Of a stretch of 41,442 nt of DNA, positions 3,799 to 29,973 are shown one piece after another. The position numbers were made by a program, and so were the translations under genes. The notes under the pieces are model-generated. The model made no database searches. It had not been told where the DNA came from and saw only the letters and a program-made list of their open reading frames with translations. The DNA lies in assembly GCA_964432055.1 (NCBI GenBank), contig CAYSMD010000003.1, positions 1 through 41,442 of the forward strand, read 5' to 3'. The stretch comes from an uncultured Candidatus Saccharibacteria bacterium (lineage in GTDB: Bacteria; Patescibacteriota; Saccharimonadia; CAILAD01; GCA-016700035). Each line of letters opens with the position of its first letter. Position 1 is the first letter of the stretch.

Positions 3799-4464
3799 AT
3801 GGAAAAACTACAATTAAAAGTTCAGGCTCGCACTGTCTCTGGCAAACAGCTAGCAGATTTGCGTGCACAGGGTCTCGTGCCTGGCATCGTGTATGGTAAG
3901 GGTGCCGAATCTCACCTGATCAGCGTGGAAGATCTGCCACTGGAGCGGATGTATCACAAGGCCGGTTCTTCAGGCCTCATTGAGCTCGCAATCGAAGATG
4001 CACAGCCAGTGCATGTCTTGATTCAGGATGTGCAGAAGACACACCTAGGGAAGCTGAGTCACGTCGACTTCCTGCAGGTTAAGATGGACGAAGCAATTCG
4101 TACCGAAGTACCACTGCGGCTTGTTGGTGATGCTCCAGGTGTATTTAACCTCGGTGGTTCACTCGTGCAAAACCTCGAAGAGATCGAGGTGGAGGCCTTG
4201 CCAACTGATCTGCCAAGCAGTATTGAGATCGATGTAACCGGTCTGGAAGAGCTCGAAGCGAGCTTGAGCGTTGCCGACCTGAAGATACCTAAGGGCGTGA
4301 CTGTCTTAACTGACGAACACGAGCTTGTGTGTCGCGTTGAAGCTCCTCGCAGCGAAGAAGAGATGGCTGAGCTTGATGCGGAGATGGGCGAGGCTGTTGC
4401 TCCAGGTGAAGAGTCTGTAGATGGCGAAGCCACCGAAGACGCACCTCAGGCTGATACCAACTAG
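3799..4464 (+). CDS. rplY: 50S ribosomal protein L25 / general stress protein Ctc (long form)
   Basis: The N-terminus KVQARTVSGKQLADLRAQGLVPGIVYGKG is typical of L25/Ctc. The C-terminal tail is acidic. A strong SD (aaggag) sits 8 nt upstream of the ATG. Confidence 0.9.
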   Translation: MEKLQLKVQARTVSGKQLADLRAQGLVPGIVYGKGAESHLISVEDLPLERMYHKAGSSGLIELAIEDAQPVHVLIQDVQKTHLGKLSHVDFLQVKMDEAIRTEVPLRLVGDAPGVFNLGGSLVQNLEEIEVEALPTDLPSSIEIDVTGLEELEASLSVADLKIPKGVTVLTDEHELVCRVEAPRSEEEMAELDAEMGEAVAPGEESVDGEATEDAPQADTN

Positions 4465-4483
4465 CACTCCTAAATAAGAAGCT

Positions 4484-4511
4484 AAAGGACCCATAGAGTT
4501 GGGTCCTTTTT
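4484..4511 (+). terminator. Rho-independent terminator after rplY
   Basis: Stem aggaccca/tgggtcct (8 bp), loop tagagt, followed by ttttt. Confidence 0.75.
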
Positions 4512-4575
4512 AGTTATCAGATTGAATGTGTTAATTATCTACATGCACTATGTGCTCAAGCATAACAAATATGTA

Positions 4576-5016
4576 TTAATAATTCTTCATTTCAGCTTTG
4601 AGTTCAGACTTTGTCCTGAACTGCATGTGCGTTGCCATGTAGCGCATGAAGGCATTCATATCGACGGCCTTGAGCGTCTCGAGTGAGAGTCTACGGATGA
4701 GATCGGCTGGGATCTCATCCTGTCCCCGTAGAATGATCTTCTGTTCAATAGTATCCACCAGGTTATCGATATCGACATCATCGAGATTAACACTGTCGAT
4801 TGCTCTCATAAGAGACATAAATAAAAACGAGCGGCGATAGGAGGAGGTTTTGCTGCTGCCCACCACCTGGAGAAAAGATAAATCTTGCCGCTCGTAAGTC
4901 GTAATGACCTTGCCACAGTCCGCGCACCGACGACGACGCCATATCTGGCTTCCACCTCGGGTCGAGCGCGTATTGACCACCTCACTGTGGGGTGATCTGC
5001 ATTTCATGCAAATCAT
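4576..5016 (-). CDS. nrdR: Transcriptional repressor NrdR (zinc ribbon plus ATP-cone)
   Basis: The N-terminus CMKCRSPHSEVVNTRSTRGGSQIWRRRRCADCGKVITTYER matches the NrdR pattern CxxC-x(n)-V-x-(D/N)-(S/T)-R-x(n)-RRRR-x-C-x2-C-x(n)-TTYE. Total length is about 146 aa. The ATP-cone half looks diverged. Confidence 0.75.
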   Translation of the reverse strand: MICMKCRSPHSEVVNTRSTRGGSQIWRRRRCADCGKVITTYERQDLSFLQVVGSSKTSSYRRSFLFMSLMRAIDSVNLDDVDIDNLVDTIEQKIILRGQDEIPADLIRRLSLETLKAVDMNAFMRYMATHMQFRTKSELKAEMKNY

Positions 5017-5186
5017 GTCTATATATTGTCATACCCCTGGTAGTAAGCACAAGTGGATAACTAAAAAATGTTGTGGATAAGTCTAATGGTCCTCTGTGCA
5101 AAGACCTTACGCTTCCAGGTGTAATCAGGTAGAATATTCATAAGCGCTTTTCGAAGTGCGCCACTAACTTCGACACCACCAATCAG

Positions 5187-8100
5187 ATGTTTCACAAAGT
5201 TACAAAACCAACCAAGAAAATCATTACCGATACCAGAAGCCTCACGAAGAAGGGGGTAGCTGGGCTTGGGGTGATTCGTAGTCGCACAACAACGGCAGCC
5301 CATATGCATGTGGCTGAGCGGGTGGGTTGGTATCATCGTTGGCACAATTATCGGCATCACAAAAAAATCCATGTTGGAGTGCTCGCGGTCTATCTGATCG
5401 CGATTGCGATAAGTTTGAGCATATTCCAGTCTGCAAAGGCAGGAGACCTAAACGATAACTGGGATTTCTCGACTGGTACTGGATATACGCTGTCAGATTC
5501 AAGCTTGGTAGAGGTAAGCAATGGAACAGTGAGACTCAAGGCACTTAATTACACGAGTGATGCAAACACTATGGGGCTGTGGCATTTTGATGAGAACACC
5601 GGCAGTACGGTTGCCGATGATTCGAGTAGTGATACTCTCACTGCAGTTGGTTCGCCAAGTTGGGCGGTGGGGAATTTAGTAAATGCCTTAACGCTGAATG
5701 GATCGACGCAGTATTTGACTGCCAATGATAGCTCAGCGCTGTCATTAACGGGGCAGCACACCATTGAGAGTTGGGTGAAATTCTCATCACCCTTTGCTTC
5801 TGGCGGAAATCAGAATCAAGCGATTGTCGATAAGGGTTCATATAGACTTTATTACAACAATGATACCGGCAAGATCACCTATGAGCTCGCCAACAACTCG
5901 GCTTCTACATGGACTCAACGAGCCGGTAACGATGTGAATCGCTCCTGGGACCTCAATGGTAAGCAAGATGTACGTGCGAGCGTCACGATCGGTACGGATG
6001 TATATACTGGGCTTGGCTCGAATGGTGGAACAGGTGATGCGGAAGTGTGGAAGTACGATGGTTCGACCTGGTCGCAAGTTGGTGGTGACGCTCGCAATAG
6101 TAGTTGGCCAGACGGAACCTATGAAGCCGTACGGTCTCTTGCTGTAGATGGTACAACACTTTTTGCTGGAATAGGTGAATCCAATGGTGATGCGGAAGTG
6201 TGGAGCTGTGATACTTCAACTGGCTGTGCGGCGTGGACAAAGCGCGGTGGCGATACGCTCAATAGCTCATGGGCGAATAGCACCTATGAAACTGTTTCGA
6301 GCATGGCAGTATTGGGCGGTAACTTGTATGCGGGTCTAGGAAATAATGCAGGTGGTGATGCTGAAATATGGCGATGTTCGGCGGCAAACTGCACGAGCTG
6401 GACAAAAGTTGGTGGAGACGCGCTCAACCTTGGGGGCGGTGCCTCACCCGACGCCACGTATGAAGAGGTTTACTCAATGACGACAAATGGTACTCTTTTG
6501 TTTATTGGTCTTGGTGCAACCGCCGGCGACGCGGATGTTTGGTCTTATAACCCCACGGGCAATGTTTGGACAAAGATTGGTGGTGACGCACTGAACCCTG
6601 GCGGTGGCGCAAGTTGGGCGGCATCTACTTTTGAATATGTGCTTTCTATGAGTGTGATGGGTACGGATCTCTATATAGGTCTCGGAACTACTGTTCTTGA
6701 CGCCGAGGTGTGGCGGTATAATATATCGTCTCCTGGGTGGACAAAAGTTGGTGGTGATGGAGTAAATCCTGGCGGTGGCGCTAGCTGGAATACAAATTAT
6801 GAGGCAGTGTATTCACTCACCAATGACGGCACAAATCTGTACGCCGGACTAGGGAACTCAACTGGTGACTCCGAGGTTTGGCGACTCAATGGTACGACCT
6901 GGACAAAAGTGGGCGGCGATAGCGTGAACCCAGGCGGCGGCGCCTCTTGGGCAACTGGTTCGATAGCTTACACTATGACCACTGTCGGCTCGACAGTCTA
7001 TGTTGGGCAAACCAATAACAGCTCTGGAAATGGTGAGGTGTGGCGGCTCAACGGTACTGCTTGGACTCGGATTGGTGGGGCGTATGTAAATAAATCTTGG
7101 GGTTACTTTGGAACCGAAAACGTAACTTCTATGACGCAATATAACGGGAAGCTCTATGCCTCGCTTGGAAACAACTCGCCGGGTGATGCTGTGATATGGG
7201 AGTATGACGGCTCGACCTGGCAGGTGGTTGGTGGACAGGGGATTAGTGGCTCGTGGACAGTTAACACAATAGAGACTGTGAATACAATGATTGCCTATAA
7301 AGGGAATCTCTATGTTGGGCTAGGTTTTAGTGCTGGTGATGGTGATTTGTGGCGGTATAACGGCTCGACTTGGACACAAGTGGGTGGTGATGCAATTAAT
7401 CTTGGCGGCGGCGCGTCCTGGGTGGGCGCTGCGTATGAAAACGTACATTCGCTCGCAGTCTTTAATGACAAATTGTACGCCGGTCTTGGCGCGAGTGCGC
7501 AGGATGCTGAAGTGTGGCAGTATGATGGCGCAACGACTTGGACAAAAATTGGTGGCGACGGCGTAGGTAGTTCTTGGGCTGCTGCTGGAAATATTGAAAG
7601 CGTTCTATCTATGGTCGGTTATCAGGGGCAACTCTATGCTGGTCTGGGAAGTTCCGCAGGTGATGGTGATGTATGGCGCTATAACCCAGGCTCAAACACC
7701 TGGCTCCAGATAGGTGGGGACGGCTTAAACTCTGGCTGGGCTGGTGGCGCCATAGAGAATGTCTGGGCACTAGCGGTGTATGACAATCAGCTGGTGGCTG
7801 GCATGGGTGACACCACCGGTGACGCTGACGTGTGGTCATACAACGGTACGATATGGGCGCAACTTGGTGGTGACGGCGTGAACTCTGGATGGGGCGGTGC
7901 CAGTGGATTCGATCGCGAGCGAATTCGAAGCCTTGTGGTATACAATGGTGAGCTCTACGCCGCCATGGGTACTGATACGGGTGATGGTGAAGTCTGGAAG
8001 CATGATGGAACGAGCTGGACGCGAGTTGGTGGTTCTGGCTTGAACGACTCCTGGGCCATTAATACTGTCGAAGAAGCTTTAACGCTGGCCACGTATAAGG

Positions 8101-11100
8101 GTAAGCTCTACGCCGGTTTGGGTAACTCGACCAATATCGACGCTGCCATCTACAGTTGGGGAAATAACGCCTATGTAGAATCTTCGACAACCACCCAAGA
8201 TACAAATTGGCACCACATTGCAGCTACCTATGATGGCGCTACAGTGAAGCTCTATCGGGATGGATCGGAAATAGCTTCAAGTAGCATTGGAGTGAGTATT
8301 CCTGATTCGACGCGATCACTGCTGGTAGGGAATGACTATGGATCTTCGAATGTTGGCTTTACGGGTGGCAATCTGGGGGCGACAATAGATGAAACAAGAA
8401 TAAGTAACTCAGTTCGATCGAGTTTTCAGACCAAACCTTACACTACGAGTGCGGTCACAGTTGAACTTACCGATGCGATTCGTACAGCGGGCGTGTGGAC
8501 CTGGGATACGTTTATTGCAACCGAAGCTCCGGCTGGTGGAACGATTGCGTATCGGCTGAGTGATGACGGCGGTACGAGCTGGAAGTACTGGGATGGCTCT
8601 GCTTGGGCGAGCTCTGGGTCGCTGACTGAAGTGAATAGCTACAGTGTGATCGATACCAATATTGATTCATTCCCCGTGACCTTTTCAGGTATTAAATGGC
8701 AGGCGGTTCTGCAGGGGAACGGTGATCAGCAGGTTGCCATTGATGATGTAGCCCTGTCGTCCAACTCAGATAGCACCGATCCTTCTGCGAATGCTTCGGC
8801 AATTGCCATGCAACGCTCAAACGGTGGGGCGAGTGTTGCGAGCAACGGCTGGACGAACGGCGCAACCCCATTCTTTAGTTGGAATGCGGCTGTCGATGCG
8901 GAGTCCGGCGTGAAGGGATACTGTTTGAGCCTGAGTCAGACGGGCTCCGACAATCCAATTACTACAAAAGGTATTCTCGGCACAAGTCCTGTCACAACAG
9001 GTGGGAATTGTCAGTTTGTTGTATCCACTACATCAATTGACTTGGCAACATCCGGCTACTTAGGTACGCCGCTCGCGAGCTCCGGCTCAGCGTATTACTT
9101 AAATATTCGCGCCATTGATAACGCCGGTAATATCTCTGATACGAACGAACAATTCCAATTCCGATTTGATAATACGAATCCGACTAATCCTGGCTTTATC
9201 ACTGCTCCCTCAGGTTTCATCAATACGAAATCGGCGACGCTCACCTGGCCAACAGCTGGTGGTACCGCCGCTCAAGACGCGCATTCGCAGGTGGCTGGGC
9301 TGCAATATCGTGTGAACGGTGGTAATTGGTATGGTGACGTGCATAGTGGATTGCAGGATGCAAGTGACTTACTCGCCAATGATGGATCCTATGCTACTAC
9401 CGATCCTCCAGATTATTCGGATATTACCGAGGGGGTAAACACCTTTGAATTCCGCACTTGGGATGCAGCAGGGAATTACAGCACGAGCTATGTGACTGCT
9501 CAGCTGAAGGTTAATACCAACGGCGCGCCTTCTGAGCCACAAAATGTAACAGCTGTTCCGGGCAGTAATACTGCGAATGCGTTTGCATTTACCTGGAATG
9601 CTCCGGCTAGCTACGTTGGAGACGCTAGCAATATTACGTACTGCTACACAATTAACGTTGCTCCGACGGTATCAAACTGTAGTTTTACCCCTGCCGGAGT
9701 GACTTCACTTGGGTCAGGACCTTACGCTACTCAGCCTGGTGCAAATACCATCTATCTAGTTGCTCGTGATGAATCAAGCAATATAAACTATTCAACCTAC
9801 GCAACCGCAGTATTTACCGCCAATACAACTGCCCCAGGCATCCCATTGAACATGGACATAGTCGACGTTTCGATTAAGTCGACCAGTAACTGGCGGTTAG
9901 CTTTAACTTGGGATCCGCCGGCTGCCGTAGGGTCTGGAGTTGCATCGTATAAGGTGTATCGTTCAACAGATAACTCTAACTTTAGTTTCGTAGGTGCCAG
10001 CACGAGTACAACCTATATCGATGCCGGCTTAAGTCAGCAGGATTACTACTATCGCGTGAGGGCGTGTGATTCGACGAATAACTGTGGTGTGGATAGCTCT
10101 GTTGCAACTCTGCAGCCTACAGGTAAGTTTACGAGTCCTGCGACTATCACTGCTGAGCCAGTTGTTGATGATATTACAACAAGAAAAGCGATGATTAGCT
10201 GGGCTACCGATCGTCCGAGCGACTCAAAGATTGCTATTGGTACCAAGTCAGGTGAGTATGGCTCTTCAGAGATCGCTAACTCTTCACAGGTAACGAATCA
10301 TAAAATAGAGCTCACAAATATGCAGGCAGGAACAACCTATTATTATGTGGCTAAGTGGACCGATGAGGATGGTAACACTGGAACTTCGAGCGAGCAGTCA
10401 TTTACAACGCTTCCGGCTCCAACCGTGAAAGAAGTGAGTGCCGTACGCGTAGGCCTTGCTTCGGCTACTATTCAGTTCACTACAAAGCAAGCGGTTCAAG
10501 CAAAAGTGTACTTTGGTCAGAGTGAAGGTTTCGGTGGGCTAAAAGTTGTAAATACTTCTGCTACTGAGTCTAGTTATTCGGCAGATCTGCCTGATTTGAG
10601 CGATGGAGCGAAGTATTTTTATAAAGTAAATAGCCTCGACGCTGAAGGAAATGAGTATGAAGGAAGTGTCTTGAGCTTCACGACTCCACAGCGGCCCCGC
10701 ATAGCTAATGTTGCCTTGCAGCCTGTTGAGGGTGAGCCGACCAGTACTCAGCAGGTCAGCTGGACGACTAACGTGCCTACTACTTCGCAGGTCGTATACG
10801 GTAAGGTTGGTCAGGGTGTAGCTGAAATCAGTGATTCGCAGTTCGTTACGGAGCATGTAGTTGTTCTCAGGAACCTGGAGGATGATAGTGAGTATTCGTT
10901 GGTCGCACAGTCACGTGATGGTGATGGCAATCTTGCCACCAGTGAGCGGCAAGTGTTTAAGACGGCTTTGGATACTCGACCGCCAAAAATTAGTGATATT
11001 CAGATTGAGACGACGATACGAGGTGTAGGTAGTGAGGCCCGTGGTCAGCTAGTCGTCACCTGGAAAACGGATGAACCTGCAACAAGTCAGGTGGCTTTTG

Positions 11101-11354
11101 GTGAAGGTGCTTCCTCGACCTCATTCTCTAGCCTCACAAGCGAAGATGCCGCACTGGTTACTGAACACATCGTAATCATTTCGGATCTTTCGACGGCAAA
11201 GGTATTTAATGTCCAGGCCGTTTCGAAGGATAGATCTGGTAACCAGGTAAAATCTGAGGGTCAATCCACGATTGTGGGTCGCGCTTCAGACTCAGTTCTT
11301 TCAATTATCTTCAATACGCTCCAGCAGATGTTTGGCTTTTTGGGGGAGAATTAA
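5187..11354 (+). CDS. Giant (2055 aa) predicted cell-surface protein: N-terminal membrane anchor or signal, LamG-type lectin fold, 13 Kelch-like propeller repeats, then a jelly-roll and FN3/PAP-N-type domain array
   Basis: A single uninterrupted ORF. The hydrophobic anchor is IHVGVLAVYLIAIAISLSIFQSAKA. LamG_3-like motifs are LNGSTQYLTANDSSALSLTGQHTIESWVKF and WHHIAATYDGATVKLYRDG...IDETRISN. The C-terminal half has repeated FN3-like units (e.g. PSEPQNVTAVPGS..., YKVYRSTDNSNF, ISWATDRPSDSKIAIG...TTYYYV). The start is uncertain: ATG 5187 or ATG 5304 (MHVAERV...), and neither has a clear SD. Confidence 0.85.
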   Translation: MFHKVTKPTKKIITDTRSLTKKGVAGLGVIRSRTTTAAHMHVAERVGWYHRWHNYRHHKKIHVGVLAVYLIAIAISLSIFQSAKAGDLNDNWDFSTGTGYTLSDSSLVEVSNGTVRLKALNYTSDANTMGLWHFDENTGSTVADDSSSDTLTAVGSPSWAVGNLVNALTLNGSTQYLTANDSSALSLTGQHTIESWVKFSSPFASGGNQNQAIVDKGSYRLYYNNDTGKITYELANNSASTWTQRAGNDVNRSWDLNGKQDVRASVTIGTDVYTGLGSNGGTGDAEVWKYDGSTWSQVGGDARNSSWPDGTYEAVRSLAVDGTTLFAGIGESNGDAEVWSCDTSTGCAAWTKRGGDTLNSSWANSTYETVSSMAVLGGNLYAGLGNNAGGDAEIWRCSAANCTSWTKVGGDALNLGGGASPDATYEEVYSMTTNGTLLFIGLGATAGDADVWSYNPTGNVWTKIGGDALNPGGGASWAASTFEYVLSMSVMGTDLYIGLGTTVLDAEVWRYNISSPGWTKVGGDGVNPGGGASWNTNYEAVYSLTNDGTNLYAGLGNSTGDSEVWRLNGTTWTKVGGDSVNPGGGASWATGSIAYTMTTVGSTVYVGQTNNSSGNGEVWRLNGTAWTRIGGAYVNKSWGYFGTENVTSMTQYNGKLYASLGNNSPGDAVIWEYDGSTWQVVGGQGISGSWTVNTIETVNTMIAYKGNLYVGLGFSAGDGDLWRYNGSTWTQVGGDAINLGGGASWVGAAYENVHSLAVFNDKLYAGLGASAQDAEVWQYDGATTWTKIGGDGVGSSWAAAGNIESVLSMVGYQGQLYAGLGSSAGDGDVWRYNPGSNTWLQIGGDGLNSGWAGGAIENVWALAVYDNQLVAGMGDTTGDADVWSYNGTIWAQLGGDGVNSGWGGASGFDRERIRSLVVYNGELYAAMGTDTGDGEVWKHDGTSWTRVGGSGLNDSWAINTVEEALTLATYKGKLYAGLGNSTNIDAAIYSWGNNAYVESSTTTQDTNWHHIAATYDGATVKLYRDGSEIASSSIGVSIPDSTRSLLVGNDYGSSNVGFTGGNLGATIDETRISNSVRSSFQTKPYTTSAVTVELTDAIRTAGVWTWDTFIATEAPAGGTIAYRLSDDGGTSWKYWDGSAWASSGSLTEVNSYSVIDTNIDSFPVTFSGIKWQAVLQGNGDQQVAIDDVALSSNSDSTDPSANASAIAMQRSNGGASVASNGWTNGATPFFSWNAAVDAESGVKGYCLSLSQTGSDNPITTKGILGTSPVTTGGNCQFVVSTTSIDLATSGYLGTPLASSGSAYYLNIRAIDNAGNISDTNEQFQFRFDNTNPTNPGFITAPSGFINTKSATLTWPTAGGTAAQDAHSQVAGLQYRVNGGNWYGDVHSGLQDASDLLANDGSYATTDPPDYSDITEGVNTFEFRTWDAAGNYSTSYVTAQLKVNTNGAPSEPQNVTAVPGSNTANAFAFTWNAPASYVGDASNITYCYTINVAPTVSNCSFTPAGVTSLGSGPYATQPGANTIYLVARDESSNINYSTYATAVFTANTTAPGIPLNMDIVDVSIKSTSNWRLALTWDPPAAVGSGVASYKVYRSTDNSNFSFVGASTSTTYIDAGLSQQDYYYRVRACDSTNNCGVDSSVATLQPTGKFTSPATITAEPVVDDITTRKAMISWATDRPSDSKIAIGTKSGEYGSSEIANSSQVTNHKIELTNMQAGTTYYYVAKWTDEDGNTGTSSEQSFTTLPAPTVKEVSAVRVGLASATIQFTTKQAVQAKVYFGQSEGFGGLKVVNTSATESSYSADLPDLSDGAKYFYKVNSLDAEGNEYEGSVLSFTTPQRPRIANVALQPVEGEPTSTQQVSWTTNVPTTSQVVYGKVGQGVAEISDSQFVTEHVVVLRNLEDDSEYSLVAQSRDGDGNLATSERQVFKTALDTRPPKISDIQIETTIRGVGSEARGQLVVTWKTDEPATSQVAFGEGASSTSFSSLTSEDAALVTEHIVIISDLSTAKVFNVQAVSKDRSGNQVKSEGQSTIVGRASDSVLSIIFNTLQQMFGFLGEN
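5919..8163 (+). repeat. Protein-level tandem array: 13 copies of a 51-58-aa Kelch-like unit inside the giant CDS
   Basis: The recurring unit is approximately LYaGLG-x3-GDaEVW-x-Y-x-G-x-W-t-k-v-GGD-x-v-N...sW...YE-x-V-x-S. The Val codons of the VW dipeptide fall at 6045, 6198 and 6366. The DNA copies are diverged. Confidence 0.8.
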
Positions 11355-11367
11355 GGTGAGTGAAGCC

Positions 11368-12291
11368 ATGCAATCTCAGTCCCTGATTAAGGTGGAAACG
11401 GTTGAGAAGAAATTTTATCTCGACTCGGAGACAGTTCATGCCTTGAAGAATGTGAGCTTTAGTATTCCTCAGAGATCCTTCTCCATAATTTATGGACCAT
11501 CAGGAAGTGGTAAATCAACAATGCTCAACACGCTAGTTGGTCTGGAGCCTCCTACGAGCGGTAAGGTAATTATTGATGGTCAAGATTTATATGCATTGTC
11601 TCCAGATAAGCGTGCAAACTTTCGTGCTAGAACGCTAGGAATGGTCTACCAGACTAACTATTGGGTAAACAGTTTGTCTGTTCTCGATAATGTATGTATG
11701 CCGCTCTATCTATCTGGCTACTCTAGGCGTCAAGCGGGATTAATTGCTATGGAAAGTTTGGAGACAGTCGGCATGCAGGATTATGCCAAGAAGCGTCCGA
11801 CAGTACTCTCGGGTGGACAGCAACAAAGAGTGTCGATGGCTCGGGCAATTATTGCCAATCCAGACCTGATTGTTGCAGACGAGCCAACCGGTAATCTCGA
11901 TACAAAAAATGGTGACATGATTATGAACCTGCTTTCAGATTTGAATCACAAGATGCGAAAAACAATAATTTTGGTTACCCATAACTTAGAATATCTGTCG
12001 CTCAGTTCTCATCGAGTGCAAATCAGAGACGGAGTGGCCACCGAAGATGATGGTAACTTCGGTCTCAGTGCTGAGGAGAAACAGGAGCGAATTAAGCGGC
12101 TCCATGCCGGGCTATCTAAGCAAGCGGGTGCAGCACACGGTGAGGGGCCCACTATCGCTGAACTCTCGAATCAGCTGGCACAGGCTGCCAGTAACGGCGA
12201 TAGCGATACACATAAACCCTCAGAGCACCTAGCGCCTTTGCAGAATAAGTCCCTAGACGCTCTTACAAAGAAAAAGAAAGGTCGCTCATGA
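11368..12291 (+). CDS. ABC transporter ATP-binding protein (MacB/LolD/FtsE-like) with a low-complexity C-terminal extension of about 100 aa
   Basis: Walker [11 protein letters not shown]-loop region MVYQ, signature LSGGQQQRV, Walker [14 protein letters not shown]-loop VTHN. The start is taken as ATG 11368 (or GTG 11356), because the track ORF start at 11272 overlaps the giant gene. Confidence 0.9.
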
Positions 12292-13547
12292 AGCCCAAAT
12301 CTACAGCCGGCGGAGTCGATAAGAGAAAATACGCAGCAAAATATATTCGTATGCGTATTCTTGTATCGATGGCTTACAAGAATTTAGCTTTTAAGCGTCT
12401 TCGCACTTTTCTCACAGTTCTAGGCGTAGTCATCGGTATTGGCGCGATTGTATTCTTGGTCTCATTAGGGCTAGGGCTTCAAAAAGTTGTTACCGAGCAA
12501 ATCGTGGGTTCAAAATCAGTTAAGGCGATCGATGTTTCTTCTCCGAAACCTCGAGTCATTCGATTGAATAATGATGCGATTAAGAAGTTTGCAGGCTATC
12601 AGAATGTGGATGCGGTTGCCCAGACATTTTCATTTGCAGGTAAAGTGATCTTTCAGAGCGCGAATACAGACAGTGTCATTAATGGCTCGGATCAAAATTA
12701 CTTAGATCTCAGTTCTTTTAAGCTTGAGGAGGGTAAGAATATTGCCCTGAGCTCTGACGATGAGGTTCTTGTGAATATGTCTCTCCTCAAGACGATTGGC
12801 ATATCTGATAAGACAAAGATCATGGGCCAAAAGGTTAAAGTCGTCATTCCTAAGGAAAAGAGAAAAGAAGCCGGAGCAAGCGAAAGCACAGAAGATTATA
12901 CGAAAGAGCTAAAGGTTGTGGGGGTACTTGAATCAGGATCGGGTGCTGAAGTTTTTACAACAGACACCTTGCTTCTGAATGCAGGATTTCAGGACTACAA
13001 TCAAGCAAAAGTGGTCGTGAAGACAAAAGAAGATGTTCCTGCAGTGCGCAAACAAATCGAGAGTCAGGGCTTCATTACGGCCTCACCCGTTGATACGCTT
13101 GATCAGATTAATCAAGTATTTACTATTCTGAATATTCTTCTTGCTGGTTTTGGTGGTATTGGTATGGTTATCGCGGTGCTGGGCATGTTTAATACGCTTA
13201 CTATTTCATTACTGGAAAGAACGAAAGAGATAGGCTTACTGATCTCGCTTGGAGCGCGTCGCAAAGATGTGCGTCGCTTATTCATTATCGAAGCGCTAGC
13301 TTTGTCGTTTATGGGTGCATTGTTTGGGCTGGTGATTGCTTGGTTGCTAGGTAAATCAATCAATTTGTTATTATTTAATCTGGCTCAGTCTAGAGGTGTT
13401 CAAGAAACCTTCTCTGTTTTCTTTATTCCGCTTTGGCTCATTGTGGGTATCATTATGTTCACCGCGTTGACGGGTATGATAGTCGTAGCTTACCCAGCGC
13501 GTCGTGCTTCGCGCATTAACCCAATAGATGCGTTGCGCCATGAGTAG
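12288..13547 (+). CDS. ABC transporter permease, FtsX/MacB family (1 TM, an extracytoplasmic domain of about 230 aa, then 3 TM)
   Basis: Topology: the LTVLGVVIGIGAIVFLVSLGLG helix, a long hydrophilic domain, then three C-terminal helices. The FtsX-type motif RTKEIGLLISLGARRKDV and the C-terminal YPARRASRINPIDALR are present. An ATGA overlap couples it to the ATPase gene. Confidence 0.85.
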   Translation: MKPKSTAGGVDKRKYAAKYIRMRILVSMAYKNLAFKRLRTFLTVLGVVIGIGAIVFLVSLGLGLQKVVTEQIVGSKSVKAIDVSSPKPRVIRLNNDAIKKFAGYQNVDAVAQTFSFAGKVIFQSANTDSVINGSDQNYLDLSSFKLEEGKNIALSSDDEVLVNMSLLKTIGISDKTKIMGQKVKVVIPKEKRKEAGASESTEDYTKELKVVGVLESGSGAEVFTTDTLLLNAGFQDYNQAKVVVKTKEDVPAVRKQIESQGFITASPVDTLDQINQVFTILNILLAGFGGIGMVIAVLGMFNTLTISLLERTKEIGLLISLGARRKDVRRLFIIEALALSFMGALFGLVIAWLLGKSINLLLFNLAQSRGVQETFSVFFIPLWLIVGIIMFTALTGMIVVAYPARRASRINPIDALRHE

Positions 13548-14709
13548 TAAAAGACATTTGTTTTCGCGTCTTCATGTGAAGGTTCTGCTTATTCTAGTTG
13601 TTATGGGAATCATTGCTATCTCAGTTGCGTTAGTGCGGCGCGCGAGTGTGAATGAAGAAATTAATTCAGTGACCAATGAATACCTGCAGTCTCGCCAGAA
13701 AAGCTTTGAGGTATCTCGTGGGACTACGAACGATCTTATTCGCGCATTAAGCTATGACTACTCTATATGGGATGAGATGGTCGATGCGGTCGAAAGTGAG
13801 GATGAGACTTGGTTTGATGAGCAGATACCGAATGCACTCAATACGTACAAAGTAGATGCTGCGTGGGTGCTGGACACAAAGTATAGGCAAGTATATAGCG
13901 CAAATACAGCGGGTAATACAGAAGTGAGTTTTCCAATCAGGAACTTTGACACGAATGCCAACCGTCTCTTTAAGGATGGGTATTTTGTTGAGTTTAATAC
14001 ATTAATCAATGGCGAAATTTATCAAATATTTGGAGCACCGATTCAGCCGGGTTCAGATATAGCTCGGGCAACTGCTCCTAGAGGTTATTTCTTTGTAGCT
14101 CGCAAATTAAGTAGGGAAGATATAGTAAACCGACTGTCGCTAGTAAATGACTCAGATGTAAAAATTACTTCAAATATCATAGACAGAGAGCCAGTTATTG
14201 TTCCGAGTGAAGGGTTATTGCAATTTGAAAGCCCTATCTTAAATGAGCAGGGTACGAAGATCGGGGCATATCAAGTCGAAAACTATTCCGAGTACATGAA
14301 GAGCACCTCTCAGGTTCTGTTATTGCAGTACCGCTTCTTTCTAGCGGCAATGATAATACTGCCTCTCTTTATGACTTTGGTGTTCTATTTTATTATTTCA
14401 ATACCCTTGAGAGGGCTTTCGGAGAGCATTGCTAACCGAGATAGTAAAAAGCTAAAGACTCTCGTCAGGCGAAAAGATGAGCTTGGGGAGGCAGCCCAGC
14501 TTGTTACTCGTGTTCAAGAGCAAGAAATTGCTTTGAAGCTGTCGGCTGAGGAGACAATGAAAGCTCGAGATGAGCTCGAGAAGCGTGCCAAAGAAGCTGA
14601 ACGCATGAATGATCTCATGGTCGGTCGCGAGCTCAGGATGGTTGAACTCAAGAAGCAGCTCCAAGAGCTGAAGGTTCAGTCATCACGCAAGAAAGGTGGC
14701 TCCGCATGA
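13528..14709 (+). CDS. Two-TM sensor-like protein: CHASE4-like extracytoplasmic domain, then a HAMP-like linker and coiled coil, with no output domain
   Basis: TM1 is VLLILVVMGIIAISVAL and TM2 is FLAAMIILPLFMTLVFYFIISIPL. The domain between them contains YDYSIWDEMVDAV...WFDEQIP...VDAAWVLD, which from memory resembles CHASE4 (Y-x-x-WDD-x-Y). The C-terminus (EEIALKLSAEETMKARDELEKRAKEAERMNDLMVGRELRMVELKKQLQELK) looks coiled-coil by residue pattern. It overlaps the permease gene by 20 nt. ATG 13540 is an alternative start. Confidence 0.5.
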   Translation: MRCAMSSKRHLFSRLHVKVLLILVVMGIIAISVALVRRASVNEEINSVTNEYLQSRQKSFEVSRGTTNDLIRALSYDYSIWDEMVDAVESEDETWFDEQIPNALNTYKVDAAWVLDTKYRQVYSANTAGNTEVSFPIRNFDTNANRLFKDGYFVEFNTLINGEIYQIFGAPIQPGSDIARATAPRGYFFVARKLSREDIVNRLSLVNDSDVKITSNIIDREPVIVPSEGLLQFESPILNEQGTKIGAYQVENYSEYMKSTSQVLLLQYRFFLAAMIILPLFMTLVFYFIISIPLRGLSESIANRDSKKLKTLVRRKDELGEAAQLVTRVQEQEIALKLSAEETMKARDELEKRAKEAERMNDLMVGRELRMVELKKQLQELKVQSSRKKGGSA

Positions 14710-16646
14710 CGAGCCTAGGTGCGCGTTTCGAGCATTTACTCAGCGCGGGGGTGGATTCTGCATCTGTAGATAGAGCTGAACTACGGCGAATGAAGTTTTT
14801 TTATGCCTATATCCTCATAGGAATTTTTGCTTGTGGCGGGTCAGCATTGGTCTTGCTCATATCTCAGCCGGCAGGATTGAGTTACGCCGCAGTTGCAATC
14901 ACACTAGGCATGCTGATCTTTTTGGGCATCGTGCTGCGTTTTTTGAAACGTACTGATGTTGTAGTGCAGCTACTGCTTGTCTTTTTCTTTGTGTTAGCTT
15001 GGTTCGTTTTAACACAGAGCCAGACCACGACAGGCATATTTTGGCTTTATGTATATGCACCAATCGCTGCACTCTTGTTAAAACGTAAAATCGCATTATT
15101 TTGGGTATTTGCATATGCCGCTTGGATTGCAGTTATTGCGAATGCTTCATGGCTTGGACCTATCGGCTATTCGGTATCTCAGGTCTATGCTTTCATTGCG
15201 TCTTTTCTGCCAATTTCGCTATTTATGATTGCGTATCAACGCATTACAGAGAGTGCAGAACGCGAAGTATATGAAAAAGATATTGAGCTTAAGGCTTTAA
15301 CTAAGAAACTTCAGGACGAGCTGATATTCGCCTCACACTCAAAAAAGCAGCTTGATGGGCTGAGTGTTGCCTTGGCTCGGCAGAATAAGAAGCTTACGCG
15401 TGGTCAGGCGGCTCTAGTTAATCTTCTGGAAGACGCTAAGGAGCTGGAGAACGAGCTGGTGCTCGCTAAGCAGCATGTTGAAGAAAAGGTGGAGCAGCGT
15501 ACGCAGGAGCTATCTATCGAGCGATCGCGTTTGGAGTCAACATTGCAGAGCCTACCTGTGGCGGTGCTATTACTGAACGAGAAGATGAAGGTTGTTGACG
15601 CGAATAATCAGGCGTACGAACTAGTTGGCGAGGAGCCCACAGGCGACGGTGCCGGGTTACCGACGGCTGTATCTCGGAAGCTCTATAAGTTTATGAGTAA
15701 CGAATTAGTTTTGGCTGATCATATTCAGCAATGTGTTGCCACTCAGGCCTGTGTTATGCTCGGTGAAGTCAGCTACAAAGAGGCTTATTATAAGGTGGCA
15801 CTTGGGCCAGTGCAGTCGGTCGGGAATGATCCTTCAGGTGGGGTTGTGGTAGTGGTTGAAAATATTACTGCCCAGAAGATGCTTGAGAGGTCCAAGGATG
15901 AGTTTCTTATGATCGCTTCTCATGAGTTGCGTACTCCCTTAACAGCCATTCGTGGAAATGCAGTTATTCTTGAAAAGATGTTTGCAAAAAAAGCACAAAG
16001 CCCGGAGTTTGATGAATTGACGACAGATATTCAAGACTCGAGCACGAGATTGCTGAGTATCGTGAATGACTACTTAGAGCTTTCGAGTATGGAGCAAGGC
16101 CGCCGTGTGTTTAATCAGGATGTGGTTGATTTAGCGGCTCTCGCACATACAATTATCTCGGAGAATCAGGGCCTTGCTCGCGAAAAAAAGCTTGACCTTA
16201 AGGTTAAGGGTAGTCGAGCTAAAAAAATACTCGTTCGTGCCGATGCACGCAGAGTGCAGCAGGTCATTGAGAATCTTATCGCTAACGCAATTCACTATAC
16301 GAATCGCGGTAGTGTAACGCTAGAATTTGCCCAGGCTGGTGACTTGGTAACGTGTCGCATTCGAGACACAGGCATTGGAATTGCTAAGTCTAGTCAGCAA
16401 AATATTTTTACGAAGTTTCATCAAGCGCAAGAAAACCTACTAACTCGAGATCCTGAGCGTAGTACAGGATTAGGTCTGTATATTACAAAGCTTATGGTTG
16501 AGGGAATGGGTGGAAAAATCATACTTGAGCATTCTGCCTTAAGGAAGGGCTCAGTTTTCGCATTCTCGCTGCCTAGTGCTAAGTCGGTTCGTTCAGTCGG
16601 GCAGAATGCTCAGAAAAACGCTACAATGAAAAGCAAAGGAGATTAA
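14706..16646 (+). CDS. Sensor histidine kinase (about 6 N-terminal TM helices, coiled coil, PAS-like region, HisKA and HATPase_c)
   Basis: H-box ASHELRTPLTAIRGN, N-box ENLIANAIHYT, G1 DTGIGI, G2 GLGLYITKLMVEGMGG. An ATGA overlap couples it to the upstream gene. Confidence 0.9.
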   Translation: MTSLGARFEHLLSAGVDSASVDRAELRRMKFFYAYILIGIFACGGSALVLLISQPAGLSYAAVAITLGMLIFLGIVLRFLKRTDVVVQLLLVFFFVLAWFVLTQSQTTTGIFWLYVYAPIAALLLKRKIALFWVFAYAAWIAVIANASWLGPIGYSVSQVYAFIASFLPISLFMIAYQRITESAEREVYEKDIELKALTKKLQDELIFASHSKKQLDGLSVALARQNKKLTRGQAALVNLLEDAKELENELVLAKQHVEEKVEQRTQELSIERSRLESTLQSLPVAVLLLNEKMKVVDANNQAYELVGEEPTGDGAGLPTAVSRKLYKFMSNELVLADHIQQCVATQACVMLGEVSYKEAYYKVALGPVQSVGNDPSGGVVVVVENITAQKMLERSKDEFLMIASHELRTPLTAIRGNAVILEKMFAKKAQSPEFDELTTDIQDSSTRLLSIVNDYLELSSMEQGRRVFNQDVVDLAALAHTIISENQGLAREKKLDLKVKGSRAKKILVRADARRVQQVIENLIANAIHYTNRGSVTLEFAQAGDLVTCRIRDTGIGIAKSSQQNIFTKFHQAQENLLTRDPERSTGLGLYITKLMVEGMGGKIILEHSALRKGSVFAFSLPSAKSVRSVGQNAQKNATMKSKGD

Positions 16647-16647
16647 T

Positions 16648-17028
16648 ATGAAGAAAATACTACTGATTGAGGATGATCCGCTCTTATCTCGAATGTATAG
16701 TCGGTTGTTTACGATTCACGAGTACGAATTTCTTGAGGATCTTGATCCGCAGAGTGGACTGGCTCGAGCTAAAACAGAGAAGCCAGATCTTATACTGCTC
16801 GACATTATGATGCCTATAATGAATGGCTTAGAGGTGCTTGAGGCTCTCAAGAAAGACCCTGAGACGCAGAATATCCCAGTAATTATGATTACTAATGTTG
16901 AAGACGATGAAACCGAGAAAAGGTCGAAAGAGCTAGGAGCTGCTGGGTACCTCGTGAAAAGTCGGTATGACCCAGATGAAACAGTAAAGTATGTTGCAAA
17001 AGTGCTTAAGGGTACAACCAAGAACTAG
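16648..17028 (+). CDS. Single-domain (receiver-only, CheY-like) response regulator
   Basis: 126 aa. Acidic pocket IEDD, phospho-acceptor context DLILLDIMMPIMNG, then ITNV and YLVKS. No DNA-binding or enzymatic output domain. The start is 1 nt after the kinase stop codon. Confidence 0.9.
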   Translation: MKKILLIEDDPLLSRMYSRLFTIHEYEFLEDLDPQSGLARAKTEKPDLILLDIMMPIMNGLEVLEALKKDPETQNIPVIMITNVEDDETEKRSKELGAAGYLVKSRYDPDETVKYVAKVLKGTTKN

Positions 17029-17044
17029 TCTGTTCGTAATTTGT

Positions 17045-17073
17045 TTGCTTTTTAAGATGAATATTCATATACT
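17045..17073 (+). promoter_or_regulatory. Candidate promoter: -35 TTGCTT, 17-nt spacer, -10 TATACT, ending 6 nt before the GTG start of the polymerase gene
   Basis: ttgctt lies at 17045-17050 and tatact at 17068-17073. No SD is present before 17080. Confidence 0.35.
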
Positions 17074-17079
17074 GAAGAT

Positions 17080-18327
17080 GTGTTACGATCACTTCTTCAG
17101 GGGCTTGAGCCATATAAGGTTATCTATCTAGATTTTGATTCGTTCTTTGCATCCGCAGAGCAGCAGCGTCGACCCGAGTTGCGAGGTATTCCAGTAGGGG
17201 TTTGCCCATTCGTATCTGATACTAGCTGTATTGTGGCTGCTTCTCGTGAGGCTAAACAGCGAGGCATCCGAACGGGGATGCGCGTCTGGGAGGCCCGTAA
17301 GCTGGCAGCGGATCTGGTGTGTGTGCGAGACACACCTTCGTATTATCGAGCGATCCATAGCGAGACATTGCAAGTCTTGGAAGATACGCCGTGTCGAGTC
17401 TATGTACGCGGTATTGATGAGATGGGGCTTGTGGTCCCGAGTTACTTACGTAGCGTGGCGGACGTTACGAGTCTGGCCCAAAACCTCAAGCGTGAGTTAG
17501 GGAGGCGCTTAGGCGATGTGGTGACAGTTTCGATTGGAGTGGGGCCAAATAGTTGGCTCGCAAAGTTGGCGGCAAGTTATCGAAAACCGGATGGCATGGT
17601 GATTCTCCAGCCCAGTCAATATAGTGATTTTTACAGCAATCTACGGTTGCTTGATCTGACAGGTATTAGTTATCGGATGCAGCGTCGACTCTACGACTTG
17701 GGTATTTATGCACCCATTGACCTCTATCGTGCTTCAGAGCCATATCTGCGTCAGCATTTAGGGGTGCATGGTAGTCGATGGTATCTCAGGATGCGAGGAG
17801 TGGAGGTGGATGAGCGTCCAGAGCAGCTCAAAAAATCTATCGGTCACCAGACGACGCTCGCGCCGCGCCCGGCTAGTAGCTTCGATGAGCTCATGAGTGT
17901 AGTCGTAAAAATGATGCTGAAAATTGGCTATCGTTTACGTGCCACGAAACGCCAGGCTCGATCGATGGCTGTCGCGGTTTCATTTGTTGGTCCAGGGGGC
18001 TGGCACAATATAGCGCGTCATCTTGAGCCTTTTGGGTCACAGGCCGATTTGGTTCGACAGGCGGGGAGACTTATTGAGCCCCTGCGCTCGCAGTATGAAT
18101 CGGTTCGGAGGATTACTGTCGTGACTTCGGATTTCGTGCCAGCCGGTCAACAGAGCTGGCTGACCGAGACAGACGTACGCTCAGAAGCCTTGTCTGGCGC
18201 TCTTGATACTCTGCGCCGTCGGTTTGGTACTCGGGCGGTGATGACGGCATCTGGCATGGAGACAGATATCTTCCCGGATCGGATTGGCTTTGGTGCGCCA
18301 GAAAAGTTGTTTTTGCCAGAAGCTTAG
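17080..18327 (+). CDS. dinB: Y-family DNA polymerase (DinB/Pol IV-like)
   Basis: The N-terminal catalytic motif is VIYLDFDSFFASAEQQRRPELRGIPVGV (compare DMDAFFASVEQ...PELRGKPVAV). GIDEMGL and VSIGVGPNSWLAKLAS follow. The start is GTG. Confidence 0.8.
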   Translation: MLRSLLQGLEPYKVIYLDFDSFFASAEQQRRPELRGIPVGVCPFVSDTSCIVAASREAKQRGIRTGMRVWEARKLAADLVCVRDTPSYYRAIHSETLQVLEDTPCRVYVRGIDEMGLVVPSYLRSVADVTSLAQNLKRELGRRLGDVVTVSIGVGPNSWLAKLAASYRKPDGMVILQPSQYSDFYSNLRLLDLTGISYRMQRRLYDLGIYAPIDLYRASEPYLRQHLGVHGSRWYLRMRGVEVDERPEQLKKSIGHQTTLAPRPASSFDELMSVVVKMMLKIGYRLRATKRQARSMAVAVSFVGPGGWHNIARHLEPFGSQADLVRQAGRLIEPLRSQYESVRRITVVTSDFVPAGQQSWLTETDVRSEALSGALDTLRRRFGTRAVMTASGMETDIFPDRIGFGAPEKLFLPEA

Positions 18328-18362
18328 CAATAGTGATCTCAGGAGTAAGGTGATGAGTAGTC

Positions 18363-18391
18363 TTGCAAAAATAGCCTTTTTCAGATATGAT
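18363..18391 (+). promoter_or_regulatory. Candidate promoter for tRNA-Val (and possibly thrS): -35 TTGCAA, 17-nt spacer, -10 TATGAT
   Basis: ttgcaa lies at 18363-18368 and tatgat at 18386-18391, about 40 nt upstream of the tRNA. Confidence 0.4.
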
Positions 18392-18431
18392 GGCCTGGTT
18401 TTCAAGCACTTTGTGAGGCGAGAAAATTGAC

Positions 18432-18508
18432 GGGTCCTTAGCTCAGTTGGCTAGAGCGCTTCCTTGACGTGGAAGAGGTCAGAGGTTCGAGTCCCCTAGG
18501 ACCCACCA
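18432..18508 (+). tRNA. tRNA-Val (anticodon GAC)
   Basis: Acceptor gggtcct/aggaccc. D-arm gctc-agttggcta-gagc. Anticodon stem cttcc/ggaag with loop ttGACgt. T-loop ttcgagt. Discriminator a, CCA encoded. Confidence 0.9.
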
Positions 18509-18615
18509 TCGAAATCATTTATACTAAGAGAGTATTTTTCATAGGGCATTTGAGGTAGATCTAACCAATTTACTAAGCCCCGTAGCTGCGGGCGCAACAC
18601 GTAGCAAGAAGAGTG

Positions 18616-18690
18616 ATTCGCTCACCGCGAATAAGCCTGGTGGAACCCCCCGAGAAATTGGGGCCAGGTGATTACGGTGGGCGTTTTTGT
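18616..18690 (+). promoter_or_regulatory. T-box-like riboswitch 3' module in the thrS leader: Stem III, an antiterminator with a UGGAACC bulge, and a downstream U-tract
   Basis: Stem III is attcgc-tcacc-gcgaat (18616-18632). Helix A1 pairs cctgg (18636-40) with ccagg (18664-68). The 7-nt bulge is tggaacc (18641-47). Helix A2 pairs cccc (18648-51) with gggg (18660-63). The sequence aataagcctggtggaacccccc resembles the T-box consensus AAnnnGGGUGGNACCnCG. An alternative 9-bp pairing, cgctcaccg (18619-27) with cggtgggcg (18675-83), is followed by ttttt. Confidence 0.5.
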
Positions 18691-18720
18691 TTGCCGCCAA
18701 ACGAGGTAAGGAGAAAAGAT

Positions 18721-27804: not shown

Positions 27805-27880
27805 CGGGGTGTGGCGCAGTTGGTAGCGCGTACGGCTGGGGGCCGTGAGGTCGCAGGTTCAAGTCCTGTCACCCCGACCA
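27805..27880 (+). tRNA. tRNA-Pro (anticodon GGG)
   Basis: Acceptor cggggtg/caccccg. D-arm gcgc-agttggta-gcgc. Anticodon stem tacgg/ccgtg with loop ctGGGgg. T-arm gcagg-ttcaagt-cctgt. Discriminator a, CCA encoded. Confidence 0.9.
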
Positions 27881-29531: not shown

Positions 29532-29538
29532 ATTTTAT

Positions 29539-29929: not shown

Positions 29930-29930
29930 C

Positions 29931-29973
29931 CGCACAAGCTACCTAAGTAAAGAGAAGCTAGGTAGCTTCTGCG
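29931..29973 (+). terminator. Long hairpin immediately 3' of rnpB (processing or termination element; no U-tract)
   Basis: cgca-c-aagctacct ... aggtagctt-c-tgcg: 13 paired bases around a 15-nt loop. Confidence 0.4.

Follow-up and report, generated by a model that had tools for sequence, protein, structure and literature searches.

ATP-binding cassette (ABC) systems of type VII are not known to carry any substrate across the cytoplasmic membrane; instead, they move partners on the outside of the cell or extract molecules from the outer leaflet, as exemplified by FtsEX, LolCDE, MacB, HrtBA, and YbbAP. The partners of FtsEX are PcsB in Streptococcus pneumoniae, CwlO in Bacillus subtilis, RipC in mycobacteria, and EnvC in E. 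coli. The present analysis concerns a stretch of 41,442 nucleotides (nt) from an uncultured Candidatus Saccharibacteria bacterium (contig CAYSMD010000003.1, positions 1 to 41,442, referred to hereafter in its full length as the window), in which six genes form a block at 5187-17028. Taken to come from an environmental and presumably monoderm Saccharibacterium, this block is a composite of two modules, namely a cassette (5187-13547) encoding a giant surface protein, an ABC ATPase, and a MacB/FtsX-type permease, and a sensor triple (13528-17028) encoding an output-less CHASE4 co-sensor, a histidine kinase, and a receiver-only response regulator. Each of its parts has a place in a known family (the type VII ABC superfamily, CHASE4, and classical two-component proteins). 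What appears to be new is the dedication of a type VII ABC pair to a giant protein outside the cell, the sensor triple falling within known kinds.

The linkage between the giant and the pump carries this finding. On the giant's side, a scan with motifs from its last two FN3-like domains gave a sample of 80 metagenomic loci, all of which also align over the terminal helix region. In all 79 loci with downstream sequence, the ATPase gene lies within ~400 nt of, or overlaps, the end of the giant gene, and the permease gene follows that of the ATPase wherever room remains, with identities to the window proteins reaching down to 44% for the ATPase and 39% for the permease. When sampled from the permease side, the giant was found directly upstream in 10 of 10 cassettes. 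The flanks are not conserved, with nrdR as the upstream neighbour for 1 of 39 complete giants and dinB as the downstream one in 0 of 52 cases, and giant-ABC-FtsX stands in quite different neighbourhoods in the loci L089, L090, L173, and L174. What follows FtsX varies from locus to locus and is mostly encoded on the opposite strand; the cassette ends directly after the permease in most loci, and no recurrent fourth cassette gene was found 3' of FtsX. Some genomes hold two cassettes, whether in tandem, as in L003 (13567-20281) and L090 (1-11230), or on one contig, as in L112 and L120 (ERZ650304.2 NODE-2). Such pairs, in tandem or a few kb apart, differ in their ectodomains (DUF2341 versus LamG/repeats) and have permeases that are only 42-48% identical, so that the duplications must be old, with each giant having kept its own pump. 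The giant/ABC/FtsX cassette is widespread in environmental Saccharibacteria, and the functional link between the giant and the MacB-type pair, obligate neighbours in ~90 sampled loci, is judged to be real on this genomic evidence. The initial annotation, made from the letters of the window alone, had already linked giant and pump and knew of no described system coupling such a pump to an adhesin-like giant, a CHASE4-type sensor, and a regulator without DNA-binding output; the link between giant and pump has become far stronger than the window by itself could show, and no published description of the pairing was found in the accessible literature on Saccharibacteria, Patescibacteria, and the Candidate Phyla Radiation, which offered only general remarks on large surface proteins.

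Several cassette loci carry further genes. In L173 and L174, a 185-aa (amino acid) PAS_3 protein precedes the giant (428-985 and 438-995, respectively) and a ~334-aa protein without Pfam match follows the permease on the same strand (9329-10330 and 9322-10329); these may be lineage-specific accessory genes. In L102, a receiver gene (12922-13278, -) is convergent with FtsX and a kinase gene lies 2 kb further on (14942-16003); this locus has no CHASE4 gene, and its layout is unlike that of the window.

The giant (5187-11354, +) is an open reading frame (ORF) of 2055 aa with Pfam matches above gathering score to Laminin_G_3, Pur_ac_phosph_N (FN3-like), and fn3. Its chain runs from a basic N-region through a hydrophobic H-region or transmembrane (TM) segment (aa 61-79) and an AKA↓GD site (aa 83-86) to ~13 tandem repeats of ~53 aa (aa ~230-985 in a repeat scan), a LamG domain (aa ~971-1078), and an FN3/PAP_N-like stalk (aa ~1555-2030). 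The repeat region matches Kelch_1, Kelch_3, and Kelch_6 with E values of 0.0025-0.007, under the gathering scores, and a sequence search of the PDB with this region gave no significant match. The propeller fold that had been assigned to these repeats is thereby the sole domain call of the initial annotation to stand unproven, those of LamG, FN3, MacB/FtsX, ABC, CHASE4, kinase, and receiver-only regulator all having been borne out by Pfam above gathering score. No LPXTG motif was found in the giant by eye, no C-terminal TM helix in the TM scan, and no hydrolase or coiled-coil domain by Pfam.

Orthologous giants measure 1995-2141 aa and are 44-70% identical, with 57-70% in the C-terminal half versus 44-52% in the N-terminal half. 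Among cassettes in general, the ectodomains differ (LamG with ~53-aa repeats, RCC1-like, or DUF2341), and what is kept is the FN3 stalk together with a C-terminal module (10683-11351, +), delimited from alignments and an AlphaFold2 (AF2) model. This module comprises the strongly conserved last 223 residues, in which two FN3-like beta-sandwiches with an LDTRPPK linker between them are followed by the tail IIGRASDSVLSIIFNTLQxxFGF, that is, GRASDS and then an amphipathic, hydrophobic-faced helix, VLSIIFNTLQQMF (aa 2037-2049; nt 11295-11333). The AF2 model of these 223 residues shows two beta-sandwiches and then a 13-residue helix at a predicted local distance difference test (pLDDT) score of 88; the helix itself is modelled at a low confidence of 56-63, as would be expected of an element that binds a partner or the membrane. 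Matches to the giant's C-terminus include P0180 and P0192, both named Candidatus Saccharibacteria; together with the Saccharibacteria locus L011 they underlie the placement of the source, and related cassettes occur on contigs of 0.7-0.8 Mb. At the other end, an AxA-type site is conserved behind the single H-region of the giants and is followed by a conserved D-L-x-D-x-W-D-F motif, and the N-terminus is probably a Sec signal cut by signal peptidase I.

A further observation concerns the cytoplasmic residues before the H-region, where most cassette giants carry a motif of ~30 residues, HHH[VI]A.RPH...L....WY..WH...HHK.H. Its version in the window (5187-5441, aa 1-85) is RSRT...HMHVAERVGWYHRWHNYRHHKK, in a basic N-region of the form RSRT...WYHRWH...HHKK. 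The motif was found in L001, L003, L087-L090, and many of L091-L170, whereas the RCC1-like giants are without it and begin with a plain signal peptide. Both in length and in conservation it exceeds the n-region of an ordinary signal peptide, and might conceivably serve in targeting or in contact with the ATPase.

The ATPase gene (11368-12291, +, with an alternative ORF start at 11272) encodes 307 aa with a Pfam ABC_tran match of 108.7 bits. Its Walker A, Q-loop, signature, Walker B, and H-loop motifs are intact, and the catalytic motifs are invariant in 11 homologues. The best NCBIfam matches are to LolD, FtsE, and MacB, all under their cut-offs; no NCBIfam equivalog was found above cut-off for any of the six block proteins, and PADLOC returned generic ABC ATPase similarity only. 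From its sequence, the ATPase is classed with the LolD/FtsE/MacB (type VII) kind. The permease gene (12288-13547, +) encodes 419 aa with Pfam matches to MacB_PCD (75.6 bits) and FtsX (77.8 bits); four TM helices (aa 44-62, 280-310, 336-366, and 382-400) enclose a periplasmic core domain (PCD; aa 63-279) between TM1 and TM2. The features of the type VII superfamily that were tested, namely a 4-TM MacB_PCD/FtsX permease and an intact LolD/FtsE/MacB-type ATPase, are both present. The nearest solved structures in a PDB search are YtrF (9o9x), 5xu1, MacB, and LolF/C/E, and more than 1755 homologues of the permease were found at E<1e-30, several of which are named ‘ABC-type antimicrobial peptide transport system permease’ by JGI. 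Across the family, TM1, TM2, and the coupling loop are 67-74% identical and the PCD, at 36%, is the least conserved part.

The last ~80 aa of the ATPase (aa ~230-307; 12060-12291) are of low complexity and not conserved in sequence. The protein is 299-330 aa long in loci with the sensor triple versus 260-278 aa in those without, a difference that may reflect phylogeny. The idea that this extension is a docking site for the regulator was rejected on account of its low complexity and lack of conservation.

How far the cassette matches described machines can be read feature by feature. It resembles FtsEX in combining a cytoplasmic ATPase with a 4-TM, FtsX-fold permease bearing an outside domain, and also, under the model set out below, in having a secreted, anchorless partner that would be held or regulated by the permease with no substrate crossing the membrane. 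It departs from FtsEX in that the permease has a MacB_PCD rather than the FtsX extracellular domain, and in that the partner is a ~2000-aa LamG/repeat/FN3 protein in which neither a hydrolase nor a coiled-coil domain was detected; the gene of this partner directly precedes those of the pump in every locus, and several paralogous sets can coexist. FtsX_Gneg, FtsX_actino, and FtsX_Gpos score 29-30 bits against cut-offs of 225-255, and FtsE 183.5 against 264.85. With the MacB family (MacAB-TolC, the Aat dispersin system, LolCDE, HrtBA, and YbbAP-TesA), the cassette shares the permease fold and domain order as well as a LolD/MacB-like ATPase, and some members of that family act on proteins or lipoproteins at the membrane's outer face. 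The presumed client of the cassette is nevertheless no lipid, small peptide, or lipoprotein but a giant protein whose C-terminal module is conserved. LolCDE membership is not supported by score (lolCE 70.9 bits against a cut-off of 362; LolD 211.6 against 307.75), and MacAB-TolC differs from the cassette, which has neither adaptor nor duct gene and belongs to a presumably monoderm organism; no MacA/HlyD-type adaptor occurs in the cassette, nor did Pfam find any such adaptor or outer-membrane duct among the remaining window ORFs that were scanned, all but a few of the total. In the type I secretion of RTX- or LapA-like adhesins, too, an ABC transporter has as its neighbour a giant repetitive surface protein whose C-terminal element is conserved and stays uncleaved. 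That transporter is a 6-TM exporter carrying an ABC_membrane domain, whereas the one of the cassette is a type VII 4-TM protein; the cassette lacks membrane-fusion and outer-membrane components, its giant bears a Sec-type signal at the N-terminus, and Pfam found no ABC_membrane, HlyD, or RTX matches. On the defining features tested, the block belongs to none of FtsEX, LolCDE, MacAB-TolC, Bce, or type I secretion, Bce being taken up below with the sensor triple.

The explanation that we favour, with moderate confidence, is that in this composite block the type VII ABC pair docks the giant through its C-terminal module and actuates or assembles it, the sensor triple being a separate matter. In such a scheme, signal peptidase would cleave at the conserved AxA site and free the giant's N-terminus, and the C-terminal module would dock on the permease dimer, so oriented that the FN3 stalk stands near the cell and the LamG/repeat head projects outward. 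Cytoplasmic ATP hydrolysis would then be passed through the permease to the outside by mechanotransmission, and the ATPase cycle could hold, position, tension, or switch the giant, or else assemble or release it, on the model of FtsEX acting on PcsB, CwlO, and EnvC. The likely role of the giant would be contact with host cells or surfaces, or that of a surface coat. Among the roles that the initial annotation had entertained for the pump, export of the giant is unlikely given the type VII fold and the giant's own Sec-type signal, and release or mechanical gating is plausible.

The second module begins with the gene for the CHASE4 co-sensor (13528-14709, +), which encodes 393 aa, or 389 aa from Met5 (13540), the latter start being suggested by homologues and by the 389-aa database entry P0001. 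Pfam finds CHASE4 only (44.4 bits against a cut-off of 26.2), and TM helices lie at aa 17-35 and 272-290. The AF2 model (pLDDT 84.7) shows TM1, a PAS/Cache-like outside domain, TM2, HAMP-like helices, and a helix of ~70 residues, after which the chain ends. Pfam finds no HAMP domain in this protein even though the model has HAMP-like helices after TM2, and no cytoplasmic output domain, whether GGDEF/EAL or kinase, was found on it. It thus has the extracytoplasmic CHASE4 domain between two TM helices that characterises CHASE4-domain receptors and lacks their output domain on the same chain. Foldseek matched it to LuxQ, KinD, and the CHASE4 domains of IsmP/PA2072, the outside domain being nearest to that of LuxQ. 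The close family is small (~17 sequences), and a CHASE4-alignment scan of the genome collection gave, among the matches listed, distant relatives only, at 20-34% identity. The N-terminal module is widespread, with 1186 representative clusters at E<=1e-30. Among the best 150 CHASE4 representatives, ~116 exceed 430 aa and hence carry further domains, and ~34 are equally short, which makes the output-less protein a recurrent minority form; in many bacteria (e.g. P0022, P0024), the CHASE4-TM-HAMP-like module is fused to HisKA/HATPase. The long C-terminal helix contains the motif NDLMVGRELRMVELKK (window 14500-14700, aa ~355-380), whose general form, MVGRELRM[IV]ELK, recurs behind CHASE4-TM modules in many phyla, with more than 600 genome-collection stretches for two patterns jointly; we know of no named domain for it.

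The kinase (14706-16646, +; 646 aa) has ~6 TM helices with no sizeable outside loop, followed by a coiled coil, PAS (weak, PAS_8), HisKA (59.4 bits, with H405), and HATPase_c (75.6 bits). The CheY-like regulator (16648-17028, +; 126 aa) has a Pfam Response_reg match only (80.1 bits), with the acidic pocket D9/D10, the phospho-acceptor D52, T80, and K102 all present, as read from the DNA and translated by eye, and no output domain. An H-box with HATPase_c in the kinase and a receiver aspartate in the regulator make a classical two-component pair. These features support a split sensor, in which the CHASE4 protein would give outside input to the polytopic kinase and the kinase would phosphorylate the CheY-like receiver; this reading draws on the kinase having no outside domain, on the ATGA overlap between the two genes, and on the conserved pairing in the distant Saccharibacterium locus L011. 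Without a DNA-binding domain, the regulator has to act through contacts with other proteins.

Of described systems, BceAB-BceRS likewise has an FtsX-type ABC transporter beside a kinase without outside sensing domain. It differs from the block on several points: the permease here has 4 TM helices and not 10, the kinase ~6 TM helices with PAS and not two, the regulator is not of the OmpR type, having no DNA-binding domain, there is a separate output-less CHASE4 protein, and sensor triple and transporter occur independently of each other. The likeness to LuxPQ lies in the CHASE4 ectodomain, which is nearest to the periplasmic domain of LuxQ, a domain that senses through a protein partner.

Whether the two modules form a unit can be judged from their distribution. 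The six + strand ORFs and their five junctions are as the initial annotation had described them. The stop of the giant lies 13 nt from the ATG at 11368, which is preceded by a Shine-Dalgarno sequence AAGGTGA; ATPase and permease (at 12288), and CHASE4 and kinase (at 14706), meet in ATGA overlaps; permease and CHASE4 overlap by 20 nt (13528/13547), which would shrink to 8 nt with the Met5 start; and 1 nt separates the kinase from the regulator at 16648. Seven contigs, of which L001, L002, L003, L004, L171, and L172 were found through CHASE4 relatives and L091 through the giant-tail scan, represent five distinct relatives with the same six genes in the same order and with tight junctions, their CHASE4 proteins being 34-48% identical to that of the window (L001, L003, L091, L171, L172). 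In these contigs, nrdR lies upstream wherever flanks are visible and dinB downstream where present; wherever the flanks can be seen, the six-gene instances are one orthologous locus in one clade, so that inheritance rather than selection may account for their shared order. Co-transcription of the block is probable in view of the overlapping ORFs kept in all five relatives. The neighbourhood comparison gave a divided answer: the six-gene order is kept in five relatives, but only 1 of the 80 tail-scan loci (L091) has the CHASE4/kinase/regulator triple beside the cassette.

The modules also occur apart, contrary to the initial view of the six genes as a single system. In L087, L25, nrdR, giant, ABC, and FtsX are followed directly by dinB, and in L088 the same genes through FtsX are followed by ThrRS, neither locus having the triple. 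Conversely, L011 has CHASE4, kinase, and receiver-only regulator genes with overlapping ORFs, and neither ABC/FtsX nor a tail-bearing giant; its kinase is 35% identical to that of the window over the full length and its regulator 46%, and regulator homologues 46-64% identical follow the kinase in L001, L003, and L011. The L011 triple adjoins a dCache protein and a smaller FN3/Ig/thioredoxin-like protein. We infer that the triple is a clade-specific add-on to the cassette. A side observation from the same locus is that the 535-aa protein preceding the triple (8346-9953) has a dCache_3 domain and no other Pfam domain, and might serve the same polytopic kinase as a further co-sensor without output. 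Another comes from L005 (1-21389, 1.14-Mb contig OZ246404.1), where a 462-aa output-less CHASE4 homologue of 31% identity lies in an island with PAS-rich kinases and four single-domain or short receivers, directly upstream of type IV pilus genes (PilB/PilC-like proteins and pilin-like proteins with LamG or beta-helix domains); this pilus neighbourhood is a lead and not evidence.

Three other explanations deserve to be weighed against the docking model. The one with the greatest appeal, although we consider it unlikely, is that the pump is an extractor or maturation device that pulls the giant's uncleaved signal-anchor or its terminal amphipathic helix from the outer leaflet in the manner of LolCDE, HrtBA, or YbbAP, the giant being then released to the wall or surface layer or shed, so that the pump would be used once per molecule with no lasting dock. 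The linkage evidence fits this account as well as it does the dock, and the giant offers suitable cargo in its one long H-region and its hydrophobic-faced terminal helix. The best scores are against the LolD, LolCE, MacB, and ADOP models and the LolF/C/E structures, and permease conservation peaks in TM1, TM2, and the coupling loop, the region at which hydrophobic cargo binds in LolCDE and HrtBA. These LolCE, LolD, and MacB equivalog scores nonetheless lie far under their cut-offs; with the AxA site conserved, freeing of the N-terminus would seem to be the work of ordinary signal peptidase already; and the fact that each giant paralogue has kept one pump over a long time speaks for a specific, lasting partnership more than for a generic extractor. 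Far less probable still is the absence of any functional coupling, in which a MacB/YtrEF-like pump for general efflux or for resistance to antimicrobial peptides merely adjoins the giant gene. The JGI names of the homologues would suit such a pump, as would the nearest structures, YtrF and the unnamed ‘ABC transporter permease’ 5xu1, both of which we take to be Gram-positive MacB-like pumps. Adjacency in 79 of 79 and 10 of 10 cases despite varying flanks, the old paralogous cassettes that each keep their own pump, and the ending of most cassettes directly after the permease all stand against it. The docking model itself has to face several findings that weigh against it. The PCD, where conservation of the permease is lowest, is 36% identical versus ~50-56% for the tail region of the giant, so that a conserved interface between tail and PCD is not evident; conservation of the outside domain had been considered as support for such an interface and was dropped for this reason. 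Docking could instead take place at the TM1/TM2 stalk, the membrane, or the cell wall. An N-terminal helix kept in the membrane would alter the topology of the model, cleavage being predicted from the conserved site, and the conserved cytoplasmic N-terminal motif of most giants is left unexplained by docking. In the annotation and transposon sequencing (Tn-seq) tables of the cultivated oral species S. epibionticum, MacB-type pairs are present (SEML1_0053/0054 and SEML1_0385-0387), and disruption of SEML1_0053/0054 causes a growth defect; the annotation table shows no giant beside these pairs and none of the giant's Pfam domains, so that the cassette is not universal in the phylum. The CHASE4 Pfam domain is not listed in these tables either.

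A single six-component system is the remaining alternative, in which the CHASE4 protein and the kinase would sense the state of the giant and ABC pair or contact with a host, and the regulator would feed back on the machine or on, for instance, type IV pili, in a manner akin to Bce-type kinases, whose sensing runs through their FtsX-type transporter. It can call upon the five overlapping or near-abutting junctions kept in L001, L003, L091, L171, and L172 despite the divergence of their CHASE4 proteins, upon a kinase that, like intramembrane-sensing kinases, is without an outside domain, upon the structural nearness of the CHASE4 ectodomain to LuxQ, which senses through its protein partner LuxP, and upon the output-less CHASE4 gene of L005 in its kinase/regulator island beside the pilus genes. 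Yet 79 of 80 cassettes do without the triple, L087 and L088 lack it at the same locus, and L011 has it without the cassette; wherever the flanks can be seen, a single orthologous locus is involved, so that the order may have been inherited; and the Bce features of 10 TM helices and a DNA-binding regulator are wanting. Tight spacing says little on function by itself, given that in these compact genomes the unrelated dinB follows just as closely, at 51 nt. We accordingly hold such a system to be improbable, and a functional coupling of the two modules within the window's own clade appears just as doubtful.

The block is flanked upstream by nrdR (4576-5016, -) and downstream, after a gap of 51 nt, by dinB, a Y-family polymerase with Pfam matches to IMS/IMS_C, Pfam confirming both identities. 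No strong intrinsic terminator was found inside the block, in agreement with the initial annotation, the scan showing weak hairpins only. None was found between the regulator gene and dinB either, so that the absence of terminators gives no operon boundary. As to the -10 element that had been ascribed to dinB, nothing promoter-like turned up when the 51 nt before that gene were scanned. The sole strong terminator-like site in 4400-18700 lies at 4484-4509, between nrdR and the L25 gene; it is a perfect 10-bp hairpin flanked on either side by T-runs and looks like a bidirectional terminator. The rest of the window carries housekeeping and envelope genes, including L25, MraY-type and other glycosyltransferases, UppP, and RNase P RNA; genes for ThrRS, MiaA, and MurT/GatD are presumed to be present as well from the syntenic loci L001 and L087 only. 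The RNase P RNA is of class A (221 bits, 29539-29933), and two ORFs within its gene, of 122 aa (-, 29535-29903) and 101 aa (+, 29567-29872), are both probably spurious. Complete tRNA genes lie at 63-136, 18432-18505, and 27805-27877, and a fourth (1-52) is cut by the 5' end of the window.

How ultrasmall Patescibacteria recognise, hold, and exploit their hosts is a central open question, to which the answers so far have been mainly type IV pili and a few unnamed ‘adhesins’. The evidence for the linkage of the cassette is unusually clean, the mechanism is drawn from it by inference, and the unity of all six components is not borne out. Of more ordinary interest is the CHASE4/kinase/receiver module, which offers a natural case of an output-less sensor feeding a polytopic kinase. 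The cassette is a concrete and testable candidate for the open question, being a large, well-conserved surface protein that in ~90 loci is never encoded without its own MacB/FtsX-type ATPase machine, and its C-terminal FN3-FN3-helix module could act as a sequence signature for such proteins. As a speculation to which we give rather little credence at its full reach, the cassette may be an unrecognised class of ATP-powered surface machine, a motor that anchors and mechanically drives a ~2000-aa stalked protein by way of a dedicated FN3-FN3-helix docking module, and a core host-attachment or coat organelle of environmental Saccharibacteria, to which the window's clade would have added CHASE4/kinase/CheY-like wiring, whereby signals from outside would tune the machine, or the cell would be told of its state, without transcription. 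Should the pump indeed dock or actuate the giant, the known repertoire of type VII mechanotransmission would reach beyond cell division, lipoprotein release, and efflux to the working of giant surface proteins in a monoderm-type envelope.

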